Shown here piece by piece: positions 12,001-27,000 of a stretch of 64,000 nucleotides of DNA. The position numbers are program-made. Position 1 is the stretch's first letter. Every line of letters starts with the position of its first letter. Source of the DNA: Cyanobacteria bacterium P01_A01_bin.123 (GTDB lineage Bacteria > Cyanobacteriota > Cyanobacteriia > Phormidesmidales > Phormidesmidaceae); assembly GCA_039815185.1 (NCBI GenBank), contig JBCBZT010000027.1, positions 32,001 through 96,000 on the forward strand, read 5' to 3'.

Positions 12001-15000
12001 CTGGGCAATGCCTTAAAACCTTGAGCGGTCACACCAACTGGATTTGGACTGTAGCTTTCAGCCCAGATGGGCAGATCCTCGCTAGTGGCAGTGAAGATCG
12101 TGCAGTGCGGCTGTGGGATGTTGATACGGGCCAATGTCTCAAGATTCTAGAAGGGCATACCCATCGAGTATGGGCCATTGCTTTCAGTCCTAATAATGCA
12201 ATGCTGGCCAGTGGTGGCGGCGATCAGACCGTGCGCTTTTGGGAGATATCTCAATTAGGGGCGGTGCTGTCCTATCCAGGAGTTGGTTCAGATAGCGGTT
12301 CAACTAAGCCACAACTCATTTCTGGTCAGTGCTTGAGAACACTGCAAGGCTATACCCGTCAGGTGTGGACGGTGACCTTTAGTCCCGATGGGCAGTCTCT
12401 TGCCAGTGGCGGTGACGAAACGTTTATTCGGCTCTGGCAGGTTGATAACAGCCAATGCTACAAAACCTTAACCGGTCATACCCATCGCGTCACTGCCGTT
12501 GCCTGGAGCCCCGATGGTACGATGCTGGCTAGTTGTGGGGAAGATCAAACCATTCGACTCTGGAATGCGCACACCGGGCAATGCCTTAAAACCTTGAGCG
12601 GGCATACCAAGCAACTCTGGTCCGTGGCCTTTAGCCCCGATGGTGCCCTCCTGGCCAGTGGGGGGGAAGATCAAACAATCAAATTGTGGCAGGTTGAAAC
12701 AGGAGACTGCTTAAGAACCATTGAAGGGCATACCAACTGGATCTGGACCCTCGAATTCAGTCCTACTGCCCCATTGTTGGTCAGCAGTAGTTTTGACCAC
12801 ACCGTGAAACTCTGGGATATCCAAACCGGCGATTGTGTCAGAATCCTGGCAGGTCACCAGGGCTCGGTAATGGGCGTGGCTTTTAGCCCCGATGGCACCC
12901 GCCTGGCCAGTGGCAGCATGTACGATCAGACCGTCCGAATGTGGGATGTGCAGACAGGAGATTGCTTAAACGTTTTGACGGATCAGCTGGTTATGTGTCT
13001 TGCCTTCTCTCCACCAAACAGCGCATCATCCTCAACGCAAGCCTCCATTCTCGCCGTAGGGGGGGTGGATCAGAGCTTAAAGTTTTTGCATCCTGACACT
13101 GGCAAAGGGATCAGCCTGCCGCAAGCCCACCAGCGTTGGCTCTTTGACCTGGGATTTAGTCCAGATGGTCAAACCCTGGCCAGTAGTAGTGCCGATGAGA
13201 CAATTAAGTTGTGGGATGTGAATACAGGAGAGTGCCTGAAAACCCTCAGACCCGATCGCCCCTACGAAGGTATGAACATCACTGGGGCAATTGGTTTAAC
13301 CCAAGCCCAAAAGGCGGCTTTACAAAGCTTGGGAGCAATCGATCAAGACGAAAATGCAGGTGCTGTCCTCCAATAATCTTGTTAAAGAAACAATCTTTCA
13401 GCGACCACTTATGCTTGCTTTTGTTTACTCCCAAAGCAACACGGAAGGCAGTTCATCCTGGGCTAACCGCAACAGTTCATAACCAATCCCAGTGGTGCCT
13501 TGGAAAAAGCCAGGGTTAAAGACAGAATTGGGCAGGTTAGCAAACAATTGGTATGCGCCGGATTGGTTGGCGCGGGCAACCACGGCAGCAGCTTTTTGTG
13601 AAGCAGCTTGTCGCCAATCTGGGCGATTGCAGCGTTGGGCTCCTACTAAAAGGACTTCAGCCACACCCAAATTACCGCAACAGAGATGATCAATGCCTTT
13701 TAGGCCTTGTTGTTGGGTAGTTTCTAGGGCAATTTGCAGGTCTTGCACCAGGGCTTCTGTCGGCCAAACATCCAGGCTACCCAGGCGTCCTAAGCCAATG
13801 CCAGCCGCGCCGTGGCACCATTGCACCGGAAAGGTAGGGCGACTTTCTGGATTGAGGTCGCGCAGGTCAGGCCAGTTTGCCTGAGTAGGAGAAAACACAC
13901 TGCGTTCGTAGGCCATCCCCTCTAGGGCGGCTTCTCGATAGTCTGGGTCATCGGTAATGGCGTAGAGGCGCAAGAGGGCGTAGGCAATCCCAGTGGCCCC
14001 ATGGGAGAAACCCGTCAGGGGTTTTTCGGCCAAGTTTTTCCAGGCTTTGGGGCCTGACGCTGGGTGGGTTTGTTGGCTGAGCAGGTGTTGTCCACAGGCG
14101 ATGGCTTTTTCTAAAACGGTGATCTCTCCTGTCACCTGATAGAGCGACAGCGATCCTAAAATGCTGCCCGCCGCACCGCTGATGATGTCCAAGGCTTGGT
14201 CAGCGGCAATCATCTCTGGTGTGATCATGGTTGCCAGGGTTTGCGCCTCCGTCAGGAAGGTTTCATCTTCTAAAAACTGACCCACCTTCACAAAGGTATA
14301 GATCATCGCAGTGATGCCAGTGGCAATGCCGATGCCCATCCGTCGCGCAAAGCGTTGGCGCGCGTCTGAAGTCATGCTGTTCAACTGTCGCCGTAGGGGG
14401 TGCAACACTCGCAGGGTCAGATCGCGGTAATGGGGCTCCTGGGTAACGTGGTACAGCCCCGCCAGGAACAGCGCTACGCCACAGCGCCCATCGTAGAGAC
14501 TGTCATTGAGGAGCTGGAGTTGATAGCGATTAGCTTGGGGGACAAACCCCAGGCTGATCCAGTTGAGGCTGCCGTCGGTATCTTGCAAGGCTCTGACCTC
14601 AAGGTCGGCTGCGATCGCACGGGCAGCCTGGATGAGTTGTTCGCGACTGAGCAGGGGCAGCTCGTTTGCCTGCCAGGGCCGGGCCTCATCGACGGACGGT
14701 TGGGCCACCCTGGCATAAAAGGCTCCCTGGATAATAGCCACCTGCTGGGCCAGGTTGGTTTCATTCAGGGCCTGGATTTGTGAGATGACATAGTCATAGC
14801 TGGGGCGCTTAAAATACTGAGAAATGGTCTGGATGTTTCTCAAAATCAAAGCATCGTTGCTGGTATTGGCGGTAAAAAAAGGAATATCCAGCTGCTCCAT
14901 AGCCCGCAGCTCAGCCTGGACAATGGGCCAGGCATTGGGCTGTTGTTGAGCTAACACAAAAGCCCGACTGAGGTAGTCCAACTCAATGCTATAGTCCACC

Positions 15001-24000: not shown

Positions 24001-27000
24001 ATCGGGTGTTTGAGACGGGAGACTAGCACGATGGTTGTTAGCCAGCGGAGAAACCTGTTGAGGACTTTGAAGTTGTAAGCGATTCATGATCTTAATGTTT
24101 GGAGCATTGGGTCTAGACAATGAAAATTGGGTATTGTGGTTGCGAATTCGTTGGTTATCAGACTCGGCATTTCGCAGTTTCCACGGTTGCCGCCGAAGGC
24201 ACTTTGACATCCCACACCAGACCTAACCGAGTTAATGCCCGAATCAGCCAACCGCCAATGTCAATTTGCCACCATGCCAGTCCGAAAAGTGCTGAATAGG
24301 CAAAGGCGTGATGATTGTTGTGCCATGCTTCTCCCAGCGTAGGGATTGCCAGCCAGACATTGTTAGTACTCTGCTCTCGGGTCACAAAAGGACGTTGACC
24401 GAAGCAATGACAAATAGAATTGATGCTGAACGTGGATTGTTGCACAAGCCAGATACGAACTAGCCCACCCCATAAAAATCCTTCCCATGCCCCCGACCAT
24501 GAGACACTGAGTCCACCCCCGAGGAGGGTAGGGATAATCAGCCCTAATGCCGTCCAGAGATAGTATCTGCTACTCAGCCAATTGACTAAGGCATCTTGCA
24601 TCAGATCCTTAGCAAAGGCATGAGTATTGGTGATTTCTGGAATTAGAATCCACCCACTATGCGCATGCCATAAACCCTGGATCAATCCTCGCAATCCTGG
24701 CCCACTGAGATGGGGAGAATGGGGATCACCAGGACTATCCGTATAGCTATGGTGCCGCCGATGCTGCGCAACCCAATAAATCAAAGGGGCTTGGGCTGCC
24801 ATTGATCCGAGAATGGCCAAGCTGGTTTTGACCGACCGATGGGCTTTGAACGCTCTGTGGGCAAAGTATCGGTGGAAACCTACCGTGATGCCAACCATGG
24901 TGGCCAGATACATGCTGCCTAAAAGACTCAGGTCTAAACCGCTAACGCCCCACTTCCAGCTCCACGCCAATGCCACGATGCAGCCCAGTAAGGGCAGCAA
25001 ATTCGTAACCATGAGGTGATGCCGCTGGCGCTGTACGAGATGGCTATGCTTAAACGTGAGGGGTGCTTTTTTGGGTGATGTCTGTAAAGCGCCTGGTGCT
25101 CCAGCAATGCTCCGTAAGTCATTGGTCAAGAAGGCGGCCCGACAAGCCCGTCGCTGAATTTTGCCGCTCGATGTCTTGGGAATACTGCCGGGTCGCACCA
25201 AGACAGCACGGTGCAAATCTAGGGCATGGTGAGTTGCGATCGCCTGCCGGATTGCAACCATCACTGCCTTGACATCCAGTTTCCTCAAGTGGCTACGTTC
25301 TATTTCTTGGACAACCACTAACCGCTCTGCCCCCTCAACATCAATGGCAAAGGCTGCACCTGCATTGGCTTGCAAAGCTGGATGACTGGCCGCTACTGTG
25401 TGCTCAATATCCTGGGGATAGTGGTTTTGCCCCCGGATGATGATCAAATCTTTGAGTCGCCCCGTTACGAAGAGTTGGCCATTGAGCTCAAACCCTAAAT
25501 CGCCGGTGCGGAGGAAGGGGCCAACGCCCGTATCCGCGAGATCAGCCTGGAAGGTTTGGGCCGTGGCTTCAGGCTGTTGCCAATACCCCTGAGCCACACT
25601 CGGCCCTGAAATCCAGATCTCACCGACTTGGCCGATAGAACATGGGGTTAGGGTTTCGGGATGCACAATGTAAAGTTGATGGTCAGGGGTAGTTTGGCCA
25701 CAGCTAACAATGGTGCGATCGCTAGCGGATACTTCAACCGCCGGCACCACCTGATGCTGCTCTAAGGCAGCTCCATCAACCGGTTGCACAATCGGCTGGG
25801 TGCCCTTGTGGCCACCAGCTATCAGCAGCGTAGCCTCCGCCATGCCATAACACGGATAAAAAGCCGTCTGTCGAAAACCATAGGGGGCAAAGGTTTGACT
25901 AAATTGCGATAACGTCTCTGGCCGAATGAGCTCGGCTCCCGTAAAGGCAATATCCCAATTACTCAAATCGAGATCGGCCATCTGGTCAGGTCGAATTTTA
26001 CGGACGCAGAGGTCATAGGCAAAATTAGGCCCACCACTGATGGTGGCTCGATGCTGAGAAATTGCATGCAGCCAGCGCATCGGTTTTTGCAAAAACATTA
26101 CTGGCGACATTAGCGTTATCGGGAAACCCGCGTAGAGGGGTTGGAGCACGCCGCCAATCAGCCCCATGTCGTGATACGGTGGCAACCAAATGACACCCCG
26201 GCTTTCCGAGGTATGTCCAAAGGCTTGCTGAATTCCCTGCAAGTTGTTGAGCAAATTGCCATGACTCACCATAACGCCCTTGGGTTTGCCAGTGGACCCA
26301 GAGGTATACTGCAGAAACGCTAAGGTGTCGCTGGTGATCGGCGGCGCTTGCCAATTAATTGCTTGCTCAAGGGCCAGCTGATCCGTGGAGAACCATGCCA
26401 GGGTGGCAAGATCAGGAACCTGAGCGGCTTGGTGACTCATGGTGGCCCAGGCTGCGGTAGTCGTCAAGGCCACTGCCGCTTCAGCGTCGGCTGCGATCGC
26501 CCTAAGTCTTTCCAGGGTTTGATTGCGGCGTGGAGGATAGGCTGGCACCGGGATCAGGTTGGCGTATAAGCAGCCAAAGAAGGCGGCAATGAATGCTAAC
26601 CCTGGCGGATAAATCAACAATGCCCGAGTCCCGGCTGGGTATTGAGATTGGAGTTGAGCTGCGATCGTTCGGGCTTGCAGATCCAGTGCTTGATAGGTCA
26701 AAGATTCAGACTTTGCTTCCCCATCTGTCAAAAAGGTATAGGCAATTTGATCGGGTTGGTGCAAAGCGCGATCGCTCAAAAGTTCAATTAAGGTTGAGTA
26801 ATGCATAAGATCAAACTCGCTATCCAAAATCTGGCAGTTATCTCATCATCAAATTCAATCCAGCCAGCAAAATTGTGTTGCTAAAGATATGCACTATGAG
26901 GCTAGGGTCGAAAGATTTGTAGTCGCAAAAATCATAAAGAAGATGGCGTTGTATAGCTGTTAATGTATGAGGAAATCGAGAAGAAGTCGGGAAGGATATA

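Follow-up and report, generated by a model that had tools for sequence, protein, structure and literature searches.

A fused FAAL–desaturase heads an eight-gene cyanobacterial locus, closed by a lanthipeptide synthetase gene, whose probable product is an unsaturated lipid freed by reduction

What would a marine cyanobacterium make with a locus that begins like a jamABC-type lipid cassette and ends in a lanthipeptide synthetase gene? The locus lies on the minus strand at 26806..13425 of the window, by which we mean the whole 64,000-nt stretch of DNA analyzed (all coordinates are window positions). It consists of eight closely spaced genes: a FAAL–desaturase fusion, an ACP, a thioester reductase (TR1), a second reductase-like protein (TR2), a pyruvyl-transferase-family protein (PPT), an acyl-CoA-synthetase-like enzyme (ACS), a Rieske oxygenase, and LanM. 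Fusion and ACP are 70 nt apart, ACP and TR1 overlap by 4, TR1 and TR2 are separated by 13 and TR2 and PPT by 119, PPT and ACS overlap by 8 (or are 52 apart if ACS begins at its 558-aa start), ACS and Rieske overlap by 4, and Rieske and LanM by 16 nt. The initial annotation had described these eight co-directional genes headed by a fusion, and the open reading frames, domains and spacing confirm that observation; its functional interpretation is partly supported. By motif inspection, the catalytic motifs are all intact. The claim that the locus is free of PKS and NRPS also holds, as no such domain occurs in the scanned window ORFs of at least 150 aa. We read the eight genes as an operon from their spacing, none of the listed holders of the locus sequences being recorded as RNA. 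Such an operon probably yields an unsaturated lipid that is released reductively.

The first gene (24158..26806, minus strand) encodes 882 aa, with an AMP-binding domain at residues 12-409, an AMP-dom_DIP2-like domain at 453-567, and an FA_desaturase domain at 629-856. The FAAL domain (about 25106..26806) matches fatty-acid--AMP ligase models, for instance NF004509 at 470.8 bits, and the desaturase domain (about 24158..25078) has hydrophobic segments and three His boxes, HRYFAH, HRRHH, and HNNHH. Could such a protein be an artefact of sequencing or assembly, in which adjacent genes were wrongly joined or a contig is chimeric? The genome assembly is a draft in 133 contigs, its contamination put at 5.99%, and the contigs of run X1 (possibly the source run), which cover 23000-25058 and 25029-27400 with no mismatch, break exactly at the FAAL/desaturase junction (25029-25058); one of them, of 16,035 nt, starts before 23000 and ends at 25058. 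(For the ACS protein, the recorded source is a Logan contig of 16,035 nt.) Against an artefact, a 375-nt contig of depth 3 from the independent run X2 spans the junction (24739-25113) with 0 mismatches, and the frame is open across all 882 codons. Moreover, the linker aligns to the N-termini of stand-alone desaturases, with query cover of 96-100% for most of the 120 listed, and the matches listed include eleven more FAAL–desaturase proteins, 838-934 aa long. The junction is real, and we regard an artefact as highly improbable.

The resemblance to JamA and JamB, on which the first interpretation was built, is right at the level of the family, but closer kin exist. Many ordinary cyanobacterial FAALs share 62-65% identity with the FAAL part, and stand-alone desaturases among the matches listed share up to 59% with the desaturase part; Moorena desaturases of the same family reach 51-54%, which agrees with the JamB value reported earlier. 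Since homologs at 59-65% exceed the 49-50% that had been quoted for JamA and JamB, a terminal alkyne is not implied. Nor is the fusion without parallel. Nine further clusters of FAAL+desaturase proteins of about 900 aa, some named from Variovorax, appear among the matches listed, such fusions are scattered over several separate positions of the desaturase tree, and the methods of a 2021 paper mention fusions within alkyne cassettes.

The desaturase part is also polymorphic. A 1024-nt segment (24018..25041, minus strand) that takes in the desaturase domain, its stop codon, the 70-nt spacer, and the first 23 ACP codons is absent from sister populations of about 96% identity, represented by three runs and by named MAGs. 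The joints read 24017>25042 in runs X3 and X4 and 24017>25046 in X2, each with 21-25 filler letters. These populations encode an in-frame FAAL–ACP, as in the 684-aa protein P0002 (95% identity), and keep the remaining operon: the sister MAGs hold the whole of it at at least 90% identity, their accessions run consecutively through FAAL-ACP, TR1, TR2, and PPT with Rieske two further along, and Rieske and LanM are together on one 3796-nt contig. The desaturase part is cleanly lost in the sister populations, which should produce the saturated analog. Both this allele and the precursor gene described below go beyond the initial annotation.

How would the chain be built and released? The cytosolic FAAL domain would adenylate a free fatty acid and load it on the ACP (23749..24087, minus strand; PP-binding 5.9e-14, with the serine in an LDS motif), a protein of 112 aa whose C-terminal tail is acidic and whose exact sequence is present in the protein collection. 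The tethered four-helix di-iron desaturase domain would then desaturate the ACP-bound chain to an alkene or alkyne. TR1 (22295..23752, minus strand) has an NAD_binding_4 match of 5.7e-72 and scores 356.8 bits against TIGR01746, with a cut-off of 213. At its N-terminus (about 23591..23743, minus strand) is a TubC-type docking domain (TubC_N, residues 4-54, E 1.9e-15), and we propose that this domain and the acidic ACP tail let TR1 capture the ACP and release an aldehyde or alcohol from it. Both reductases keep GxxGxxG and YxxxK, which in TR1 read GATGFLG and YSQSK. Reductive release, suggested earlier, is the likely exit given the docking domain and the tail, and given that the 395-aa TR1 homolog of a genome from a related genus (G467) has no docking domain and no adjoining ACP.

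The three genes that follow had been listed as a second reductase, a pyruvyl-transferase-like gene, and a FadD-like gene. The genes are as described, but they are not an ad hoc grouping. TR2 (21139..22281, minus strand), an SDR/thioester-reductase-like protein, has an NAD_binding_4 domain and a TIGR01746 score of 150 bits, below the cut-off, and its nearest solved structure is MxaA. PPT (19592..21019, minus strand), of 475 aa, is PS_pyruv_trans-like (PF04230, 3.4e-6) with a GT-B fold: the Atlas TM is 0.70 to CsaB clusters, and an AF2 model of pLDDT 87 has GT-B matches. ACS (17863..19599, minus strand) is an adenylating enzyme of 578 aa, shortened to 558 aa if translation begins further downstream (AMP-binding 1.9e-53). 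The PPT family holds about 55% identity across phyla, and we found 80 metagenome loci with PPT. Counting for each gene the loci with enough room, we observe TR2 directly upstream of PPT in 65/66, a HAD–fatty-acyl-reductase fusion further upstream in 48/49, and an ACS homolog directly after PPT in 47/52, together with an enoyl-CoA hydratase (40/43), a second adenylating enzyme (27/29), and a DAG-kinase-like gene (22/26). Among cyanobacteria the trio is very rare. From these sequence neighborhoods, TR2–PPT–ACS is a borrowed module: it forms the conserved core of a lipid operon, widespread but undescribed, that is associated with fatty-acyl reductases.

The trio would then act on the released alcohol or aldehyde and make a polar lipid of it. 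PPT may add a head group, derived from phosphoenolpyruvate or otherwise, to a hydroxyl, while ACS may activate a carboxylate that TR2 then reduces, leading to an ether-type lipid. The ether-lipid analogy is a loose one: PPT was not found in three Cystobacterineae genomes (Myxococcus, Corallococcus and Pyxidicoccus) that carry the studied elb genes, so elb represents a different system. After these steps the Rieske non-heme iron oxygenase (16802..17866, minus strand; 354 aa, PF00355 1.2e-21) would oxygenate the product; it has the CxH..CxxH cluster motif and the ExxHx4H iron motif, and its nearest solved structures are SxtT, SxtDIOX, and NdmA. An unsaturated fatty aldehyde or alcohol turned into a polar lipid is the most likely product.

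What, then, is LanM doing at the end of a lipid operon? This class II lanthipeptide synthetase (13425..16817, minus strand) has 1130 aa, scores 995 bits against TIGR03897, and is the only match when its own genome is searched. It does not appear to be an orphan. A candidate LanA precursor gene lies within the window (7160..7420, minus strand), with a predicted Nif11-type leader (TIGR03798 at 22.9 bits, below the cut-off, and a weak Nif11 Pfam match), a GG site, and a core of 10 residues that include two Ser and one Cys; over residues 1-72 it is 53% identical to a LanA of G467. LanM, probably co-transcribed as the last gene, would mature this peptide encoded 6 kb away.

In G467, homologs of TR1, TR2, PPT, ACS, and Rieske (61-70% identity) are followed on the same strand by about 12 Nif11-leader LanA genes and a LanM (65%). 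In both genomes the island adjoins menA-DUF2515, the same chromosomal place, and the neighborhood of lipid cassette and LanM has outlasted inversion and rearrangement between the two genera. This conservation, the 16-nt Rieske overlap, and the fact that LanM is the genome's only one make the earlier suggestion of a LanM link more likely. They also count against the foremost alternative, a possible but distinctly weaker reading: two unrelated products, a free lipid (aldehyde, alcohol, or ether-type) and an ordinary prochlorosin-like lanthipeptide, from genes with no more in common than an island and perhaps a promoter. It differs from our preferred explanation solely in denying cooperation. In its favor, the search of the scanned window ORFs gave no joining enzyme, and in G467 Rieske is separated from LanM by the LanA array together with genes for a methyltransferase, an aldo-keto reductase, and a PpiC-like protein. 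Further, the trio is without LanM in 80/80 metagenome loci. Homologs of the desaturase, ACP, and Rieske are likewise in 0/80, so the combination is lineage-specific, and its parts may not cooperate. The island's common place beside DUF2515 fits two products as well, as the shared neighborhood may reflect common descent, not function.

Can the lipid and the peptide be joined? Lipidated RiPPs occur in other classes, as lipolanthines, goadvionins, and selidamides. Here an aldehyde- or alcohol-derived unsaturated unit could be placed on the peptide once LanM has modified it; reductive N-alkylation at the newly formed N-terminus is one conceivable route, addition to a dehydro residue another. That Rieske and LanM are translationally coupled, and that the window's clade and G467 alike conserve TR1-TR2-PPT-ACS-Rieske in one place with LanA and LanM, would suit such a conjugate. 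On the other hand, we see no thioesterase, acyltransferase, GNAT, or other known joining enzyme, the G467 LanA cores have no N-terminal residue common to all, and elsewhere the trio is a lipid module. We consider the conjugate possible, but unlikely.

The island has other peptides too. 'NHNET' multi-core peptides with double-glycine leaders and a common follower motif adjoin the cassette in the window and in G467, and many of their cores have no Cys, so that LanM alone is an insufficient explanation for them. It could be argued from this adjacency that TR1, TR2, PPT, ACS, and Rieske tailor these peptides rather than lipids. That seems far-fetched: FAAL, ACP, and desaturase belong to lipid metabolism, and in the 80 loci, which have no such peptides, the trio homologs accompany a fatty-acyl reductase, an enoyl-CoA hydratase, and a lipid-kinase-like gene. 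Our preferred explanation, to which we give about an even chance, is a chimeric lipid operon in which a jamABC-type cassette, its two leading genes joined into one, is combined with reductive release and TR2–PPT–ACS, plus LanM.

It is useful to set this locus beside known systems. In the sections consulted of PMC8341276 and PMC10088813, JamABC (jamaicamide, Moorena) and TtuABC (Teredinibacter) comprise an acyl-activating enzyme, an acyl-ACP membrane di-iron desaturase, and a dedicated ACP. The same three functions occur here, and in the order FAAL-Des-ACP of jamABC (PMC8341276), as the initial annotation had it; but the first two proteins are fused, the domains are closer to other cyanobacterial homologs than to JamA and JamB, and the starter meets a docking-domain thioester reductase with no PKS/NRPS. 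The polyyne cassettes (cay, ccn, pgn), with their FAAL, ACP, and desaturase triad, share the desaturase family and loading by FAAL and ACP, and in the cyanobacterial FAAL, four-desaturase, and PKS loci L059 and G038 each of the four desaturases shares 43-56% identity with the domain here. Compared with both, our locus has one desaturase domain, fused, and neither thioesterase nor PKS.

In prochlorosin-type class II systems we find the same kind of LanM, with dehydratase and LanC-like domains, and of precursor, with a Nif11-type leader and GG site; here, LanM ends a lipid operon, the precursor occurs in just two copies, which share one identical short core, and the C39 transporters are on other contigs. 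TR1 and TR2 belong to the NAD_binding_4/thioester-reductase family of HetM/HglB (heterocyst glycolipid) and of MxaA-type NRPS/PKS terminal R domains. In HetM/HglB-type and terminal-R systems, reductive release gives an alcohol, and a polar head group follows. Here TR1 is free-standing, with its docking domain and no fused carrier domain, and the enzyme proposed to add the head group comes from the pyruvyl-transferase family instead of being a classical glycosyltransferase. Finally, TR2, PPT, and ACS have homologs (about 52%, 52%, and 43% identity), arranged in the same order, in the widespread operon of HAD-FAR, TR2, PPT, ACS, ECH, ligase, and DAG-kinase-like genes, of which only the trio is present here: FAAL-Des, ACP, and TR1 take the place of the fatty-acyl reductase, and Rieske and LanM that of the enoyl-CoA hydratase, second ligase, and kinase.

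An eight-gene row runs on the minus strand of the window from 26806 to 13425. Neighboring genes overlap by 4-16 nt or are no more than 119 nt apart, and their starts were checked by exact sequence look-ups. The first gene codes for a protein of 882 aa in which Pfam and NCBIfam place an AMP-binding domain (12-409), a DIP2-like C-domain (453-567), and a desaturase (629-856). The ligase part is an acyl-activating enzyme of the fatty-acid--AMP ligase (FAAL) or acyl-ACP synthetase type (AMP-binding, 4.1e-70 in Pfam). Its best fatty-acid--AMP ligase model in NCBIfam gives 470.8 bits, under the full-length cut-offs because those models are equivalog or subfamily models. 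The membrane desaturase that adjoins it (FA_desaturase, 7.4e-18) has hydrophobic segments and three His boxes, HRYFAH, HRRHH, and HNNHH, and it is about 50-59% identical to stand-alone homologues versus 35-42% to the housekeeping desaturases of relatives. A dedicated acyl carrier protein (ACP; 112 aa, PP-binding 5.9e-14) is encoded 70 nt 3′ of the fusion gene. Then come TR1, a thioester reductase (TIGR01746, 356.8 bits vs. a cut-off of 213, with GATGFLG and YSQSK motifs) that has a TubC-type docking domain at its N-terminus, and TR2, a second reductase of that superfamily, which is only a relative of the thioester reductase family, as it scores 150.4 bits against the same model, under the cut-off, with NAD(P) and Tyr-Lys motifs present. 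The row goes on with a pyruvyl-transferase-like protein (PPT, 475 aa), an acyl-CoA-synthetase-like protein (ACS), and a Rieske protein, and ends with LanM, a class II lanthipeptide synthetase (TIGR03897, 995.4 bits vs. 304) in which both the DUF4135 dehydratase and the LanC-like cyclase Pfam domains are found.

All the catalytic motifs that we sought in these proteins are intact, and the larger ORFs scanned in the window have no PKS or NRPS domain to which a starter could be handed over. The initial annotation described a fusion at the head of eight packed genes without PKS or NRPS, and the ORFs, the Pfam and NCBIfam matches, and the intact motifs bear this out. A complex prediction for TR1 residues 1-90 with the ACP scores 0.20, for a mark of 0.34, and weighs neither for nor against docking. 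Scans for promoters and terminators over 12800-28800 give no excess over shuffles (8 vs. a mean of 13.7, and 19 vs. 16.7). Among the public records listed as containing this stretch, none is RNA.

Is the fusion real, or did the assembly put two genes together? We aligned the contigs of four public sequencing runs (X1 to X4) over 23000-27400. In X1, possibly the source of the assembly, a 16,035-nt contig covers 23000-25058 and a second one 25029-27400, with zero mismatches in both. It is precisely at the ligase/desaturase junction that one gives way to the other, so that X1 alone leaves it unbridged. That break is what an assembly artefact could look like. However, a 375-nt contig of X2 (depth 3) bridges the junction at 24739-25113 without a mismatch, the reading frame of the fusion gene is open throughout, the linker aligns to the N-termini of stand-alone desaturases, and there are other two-domain proteins of FAAL plus desaturase, of 838-934 aa. 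We regard an artefact as extremely improbable.

The same runs reveal a second allele in wild populations. Contigs from X2, X3, and X4 that are ~96% identical to the window omit 24018..25041 (X3, X4) or 24018..25045 (X2), and have 21-25 other letters instead. Besides the desaturase domain with its stop codon, the omitted 1024 nt take in the 70-nt spacer and 23 codons from the start of the ACP gene, and what is left encodes an in-frame ligase–ACP protein. Such a protein is on record (P0002, 684 aa, 95% identical across the ligase part), in a cluster with members named from the "Cyanobacteria bacterium" MAGs J06635_15, J06639_16, and J06659_2. These MAGs also carry TR1, TR2, PPT, ACS, and Rieske, which are no less than 90% identical and bear consecutive accessions, and in sister populations Rieske and LanM occur together on a single 3796-nt contig. 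By read depth, X1 has the plus form (desaturase present) only; X3 and X4 have the minus form at 18-22, with the desaturase bins at 0-2.4; and X2 has the minus form at 21.8 and the plus form at 3.

We favor a deletion over an insertion as the probable direction of this change, because the ligase, desaturase, and ACP of the plus form stand in the canonical order of jamABC, and because no near-identical donor desaturase turns up (the best of 7343 matches has 59% identity). The breakpoints fit neither direction decisively; the 21-nt filler could be part of the ACP linker in diverged form. The presence of both alleles in populations that are ~96% identical amounts to a natural knock-out, which could be used for product discovery by comparative metabolomics.

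Among the best 120 whole-protein matches we find nine further clusters (P0003-P0011, 883-910 aa, 46-55% identity) with both Pfam domains, one of them with members named from Variovorax, and among the matches listed in 40 genomes of relatives there is no both-domain match other than the window's own. The ligase part is closer to many unfused or ACP-fused cyanobacterial FAALs (62-65% identity) than to the ligase parts of the fusions (57% for P0003, and 46-49% for the others), and the desaturase part reaches at most 59% with stand-alone cyanobacterial desaturases, and 48-54% with the fusions. We built a FastTree of the ligase parts (120 rows, the window and all 119 listed matches), in which seven proteobacterial-type fusions form one clade that P0005 joins, and the window pairs with P0002; the position of P0003 relative to the window's FAAL is not settled in it. 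A second FastTree, of 76 desaturase parts, takes in the window along with 11 fusions, half of the 120 listed stand-alone matches (the first 60), and four desaturases of the cyanobacterial locus L059 (leaving aside the other 60 stand-alone matches and the copies of another genome, G038). There the fusions fall at five separate places beside stand-alone proteins, each with SH-like support of at least 97. These are quick trees with long branches, and they point to several independent FAAL–desaturase fusion events as likely; such a repeated origin suggests that the fusion is advantageous.

Searching contigs with the fusion returns nearly all plain FAALs. The sole locus matched over 4-880 is L059, which we rejected as a further fusion: its FAAL and four desaturases are separate genes. 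A representative-protein search is dominated by megasynthases, and its 3 full-length fusions in 150 rows should not be taken as a family count. L059 (9947..23930) and a locus in G038 (L176, at C1:2060898-2075260) each combine a single FAAL with ACPs and with four desaturases in tandem, which share 43-56% identity with the window's domain; in L059 a PKS longer than 2511 aa comes next. Both are candidate polyyne clusters.

The middle of the operon has a different history. PPT reaches 27.6 bits with PF04230 (gathering threshold 25.3), its predicted model (pLDDT 87) has GT-B fold matches in the PDB, and it has structural TM scores of 0.70-0.72 to clusters of CsaB-type pyruvyl transferases in the Atlas. 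We assign it on this score and predicted structure to the polysaccharide pyruvyl transferase family, with a GT-B fold, an assignment of family and not of donor or acceptor. A PDB sequence search with the PPT profile gives two rows, both at chance level. Relatives about 55% identical occur in many phyla (7442 matches), under names from Myxococcota, Planctomycetes, Bdellovibrionota, Pseudomonadota, and one cyanobacterium, Leptothoe spongobia, at 66%. PPT is rare in cyanobacteria: counting the window's own genome, it is in 1 of 401 genomes of the phylum sample, 1 of 401 of the class sample, and 2 of 173 in the order.

We then have 80 metagenome loci found by PPT alignment, two of them annotated, where neighbors are counted over loci with enough room. 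Right upstream of PPT there is a TR2 homologue in 65 of 66 loci, and right after it an ACS homologue in 47 of 52. Farther upstream is a HAD–fatty-acyl-reductase fusion (48/49), and downstream there are an enoyl-CoA hydratase (40/43), a second adenylating enzyme (27/29), and a DAG-kinase-like gene (22/26). None of the 80 loci has a homologue of the desaturase, ACP, Rieske, or LanM. To judge from this gene order, the TR2–PPT–ACS trio is a borrowed module, the core of a widespread lipid operon. Since the trio is always beside a fatty-alcohol-making enzyme, we infer that here it acts on the alcohol or aldehyde from TR1. As a guess, PPT would make an enolpyruvyl ether of the fatty alcohol, ACS would turn the ether into a thioester, and TR2 would reduce that thioester. 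We found no description of the trio among the papers listed. By tying it to a defined source of fatty aldehyde or alcohol, the operon offers a small tractable system for the function of the trio, which bears on hundreds of soil and marine bacteria with the larger operon.

The window's Rieske has counterparts of 90% identity or higher whose names come from a Pleurocapsa MAG, and an 85%-identical PPT cluster is on a 21,478-nt contig. Either the cassette has been transferred among distant cyanobacteria, or these are mixed bins.

An own-genome search finds no second LanM, and the start of this one and the Rieske stop overlap by 16 nt. A candidate class II precursor is nearby at 7160..7420, a Nif11-leader LanA that has a GG site and, in its core of 10 residues, two Ser and one Cys; its leader is 53-54% identical to LanAs of G467, a genome of the same family and another genus, and scores under the cut-off of TIGR03798 (22.9 vs. 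32.3 bits). A second copy with an identical core lies outside the window at contig position 20573-20782, 18.6 kb from the first. The cluster has no leader-cleaving C39 transporter; the two Peptidase_C39 matches are on contigs C92 and C128, not on the window's contig, C70.

In G467, DUF2515 is followed in one direction by a TR1 homologue without the docking domain, TR2, PPT, ACS, and Rieske, these five at 61-70% identity. After Rieske, and in the same direction, there are two "NHNET" peptides, a methyltransferase, and about 12 Nif11-leader LanA genes that have an aldo-keto reductase and a PpiC-like gene among them, then LanM (65%) and an NRPS ending in a reductase. Compared with G467, the window's island is inverted relative to menA–DUF2515. 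That the lipid cassette and the lanthipeptide genes stay together in two genera despite rearrangements raises the odds of a functional link. Co-location falls short of showing one, because the two islands share one chromosomal position and we see no enzyme that could do the joining.

The NHNET peptides may be an undescribed family of multi-core RiPP precursors. They consist of 1-6 repeats of a unit in which a stretch resembling a double-glycine leader (…ELSEEDL..IAGG) precedes a variable core of only 4-14 residues, in some cases containing Cys, and "NHNET(M/I/V)" follows as a conserved follower. They are on the minus strand at 6651..6998, 7520..7762, and 8861..9376 of the window, and at 7604..8404, 8899..9144, and 10246..11133 of L179, a stretch of C70 outside the window; in G467, a peptide with the follower adjoins the cassette (L175, 8291..8584). 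They match no Pfam family, an Atlas search with a multi-core peptide gives at most 0.80, and none of the papers listed for the motif is relevant. Both sets belong to a segmental duplication (window 6651..13376 and L179 7604..15117) that flanks the men (phylloquinone/menaquinone) operon and also includes the Nif11 LanA, a PF14518 haem-oxygenase-like iron enzyme (278 and 282 aa), and, on the opposite strand, a large STAND-type NTPase with WD40 repeats (1258 and 1210 aa). Upstream of the window, L179 4891..7572 (C70 16891..19572) has an array of about ten peptides of 45-57 aa. All have a double-glycine leader; the core is acidic (KPKEDDDP…) in some and of the PINIVRNG… type in the others, and the arrangements of Cys, Ser, or Thr usual in lanthipeptides are missing from all of them. 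Elsewhere in the window, two adjoining TIR-domain proteins (219 and 248 aa) at 32250..33870, with GC of 0.38-0.40 vs. ~0.52 around them, may be a defence islet.

Our leading reading, to which we give even chances, is a three-module lipid pathway. In this pathway, FAAL–desaturase, ACP, and TR1 would make a fatty aldehyde or alcohol unit, and TR2, PPT, ACS, and Rieske would dress it; if so, desaturase-plus and desaturase-minus populations would yield unsaturated and saturated versions. The initial annotation raised both a reductive release and a hand-over to the LanM product. A new kind of lipidated RiPP, with an alkene or alkyne fatty unit joined to the class II lanthipeptide or to the NHNET peptides, and again with unsaturated and saturated versions in the two kinds of population, seems to us a long shot; if true, it would be the first class II example of lipid and lanthipeptide joined.

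How does the lipid pathway compare with what is known? Sequence cannot separate acetylenases from desaturases, as PMC8341276 states as well. The JamA-JamB label of the initial annotation holds as to domain families, but at family level only, as unfused cyanobacterial homologues are 62-65% (ligase) and up to 59% (desaturase) identical. Such fusions recur; in a 2021 mBio study of alkyne and polyyne cassettes, the methods speak of cutting proteins that occur "as a fusion" for alignment (PMC8406139), so fusions in these cassettes had already been met with. Beyond that one sentence, none of the papers listed describes a FAAL–desaturase fusion protein, though supplements may list some, or a FAAL/LanM operon. 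For the trio, we compared the ether-lipid operon elbA-E of Myxococcus, where ElbD is a multidomain protein with FAR, ACS, ACP, and acyltransferase (PMC9131029). The window has neither an acyltransferase nor a multidomain ElbD-like protein. We considered ElbC as a PPT homologue and rejected it; since PPT is absent from three Cystobacterineae genomes, the elb operon is a loose analogue only.

The finding is thus more interesting for its context than as a "JamA-JamB fusion". What is new is the predicted PKS-free, docking-domain-mediated reductive exit, the recruitment of TR2–PPT–ACS and the coupling to the genome's sole LanM, and a wild desaturase-minus allele that gives a direct route to the product. 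A FAAL tethered to an ACP-dependent membrane desaturase is a compact unit to load and desaturate, and could help put alkene or alkyne handles on lipids. The jamABC-type cassettes hand their starter over to a PKS/NRPS, whereas the window keeps the jamABC gene order in its plus form with no such domain in the ORFs scanned.
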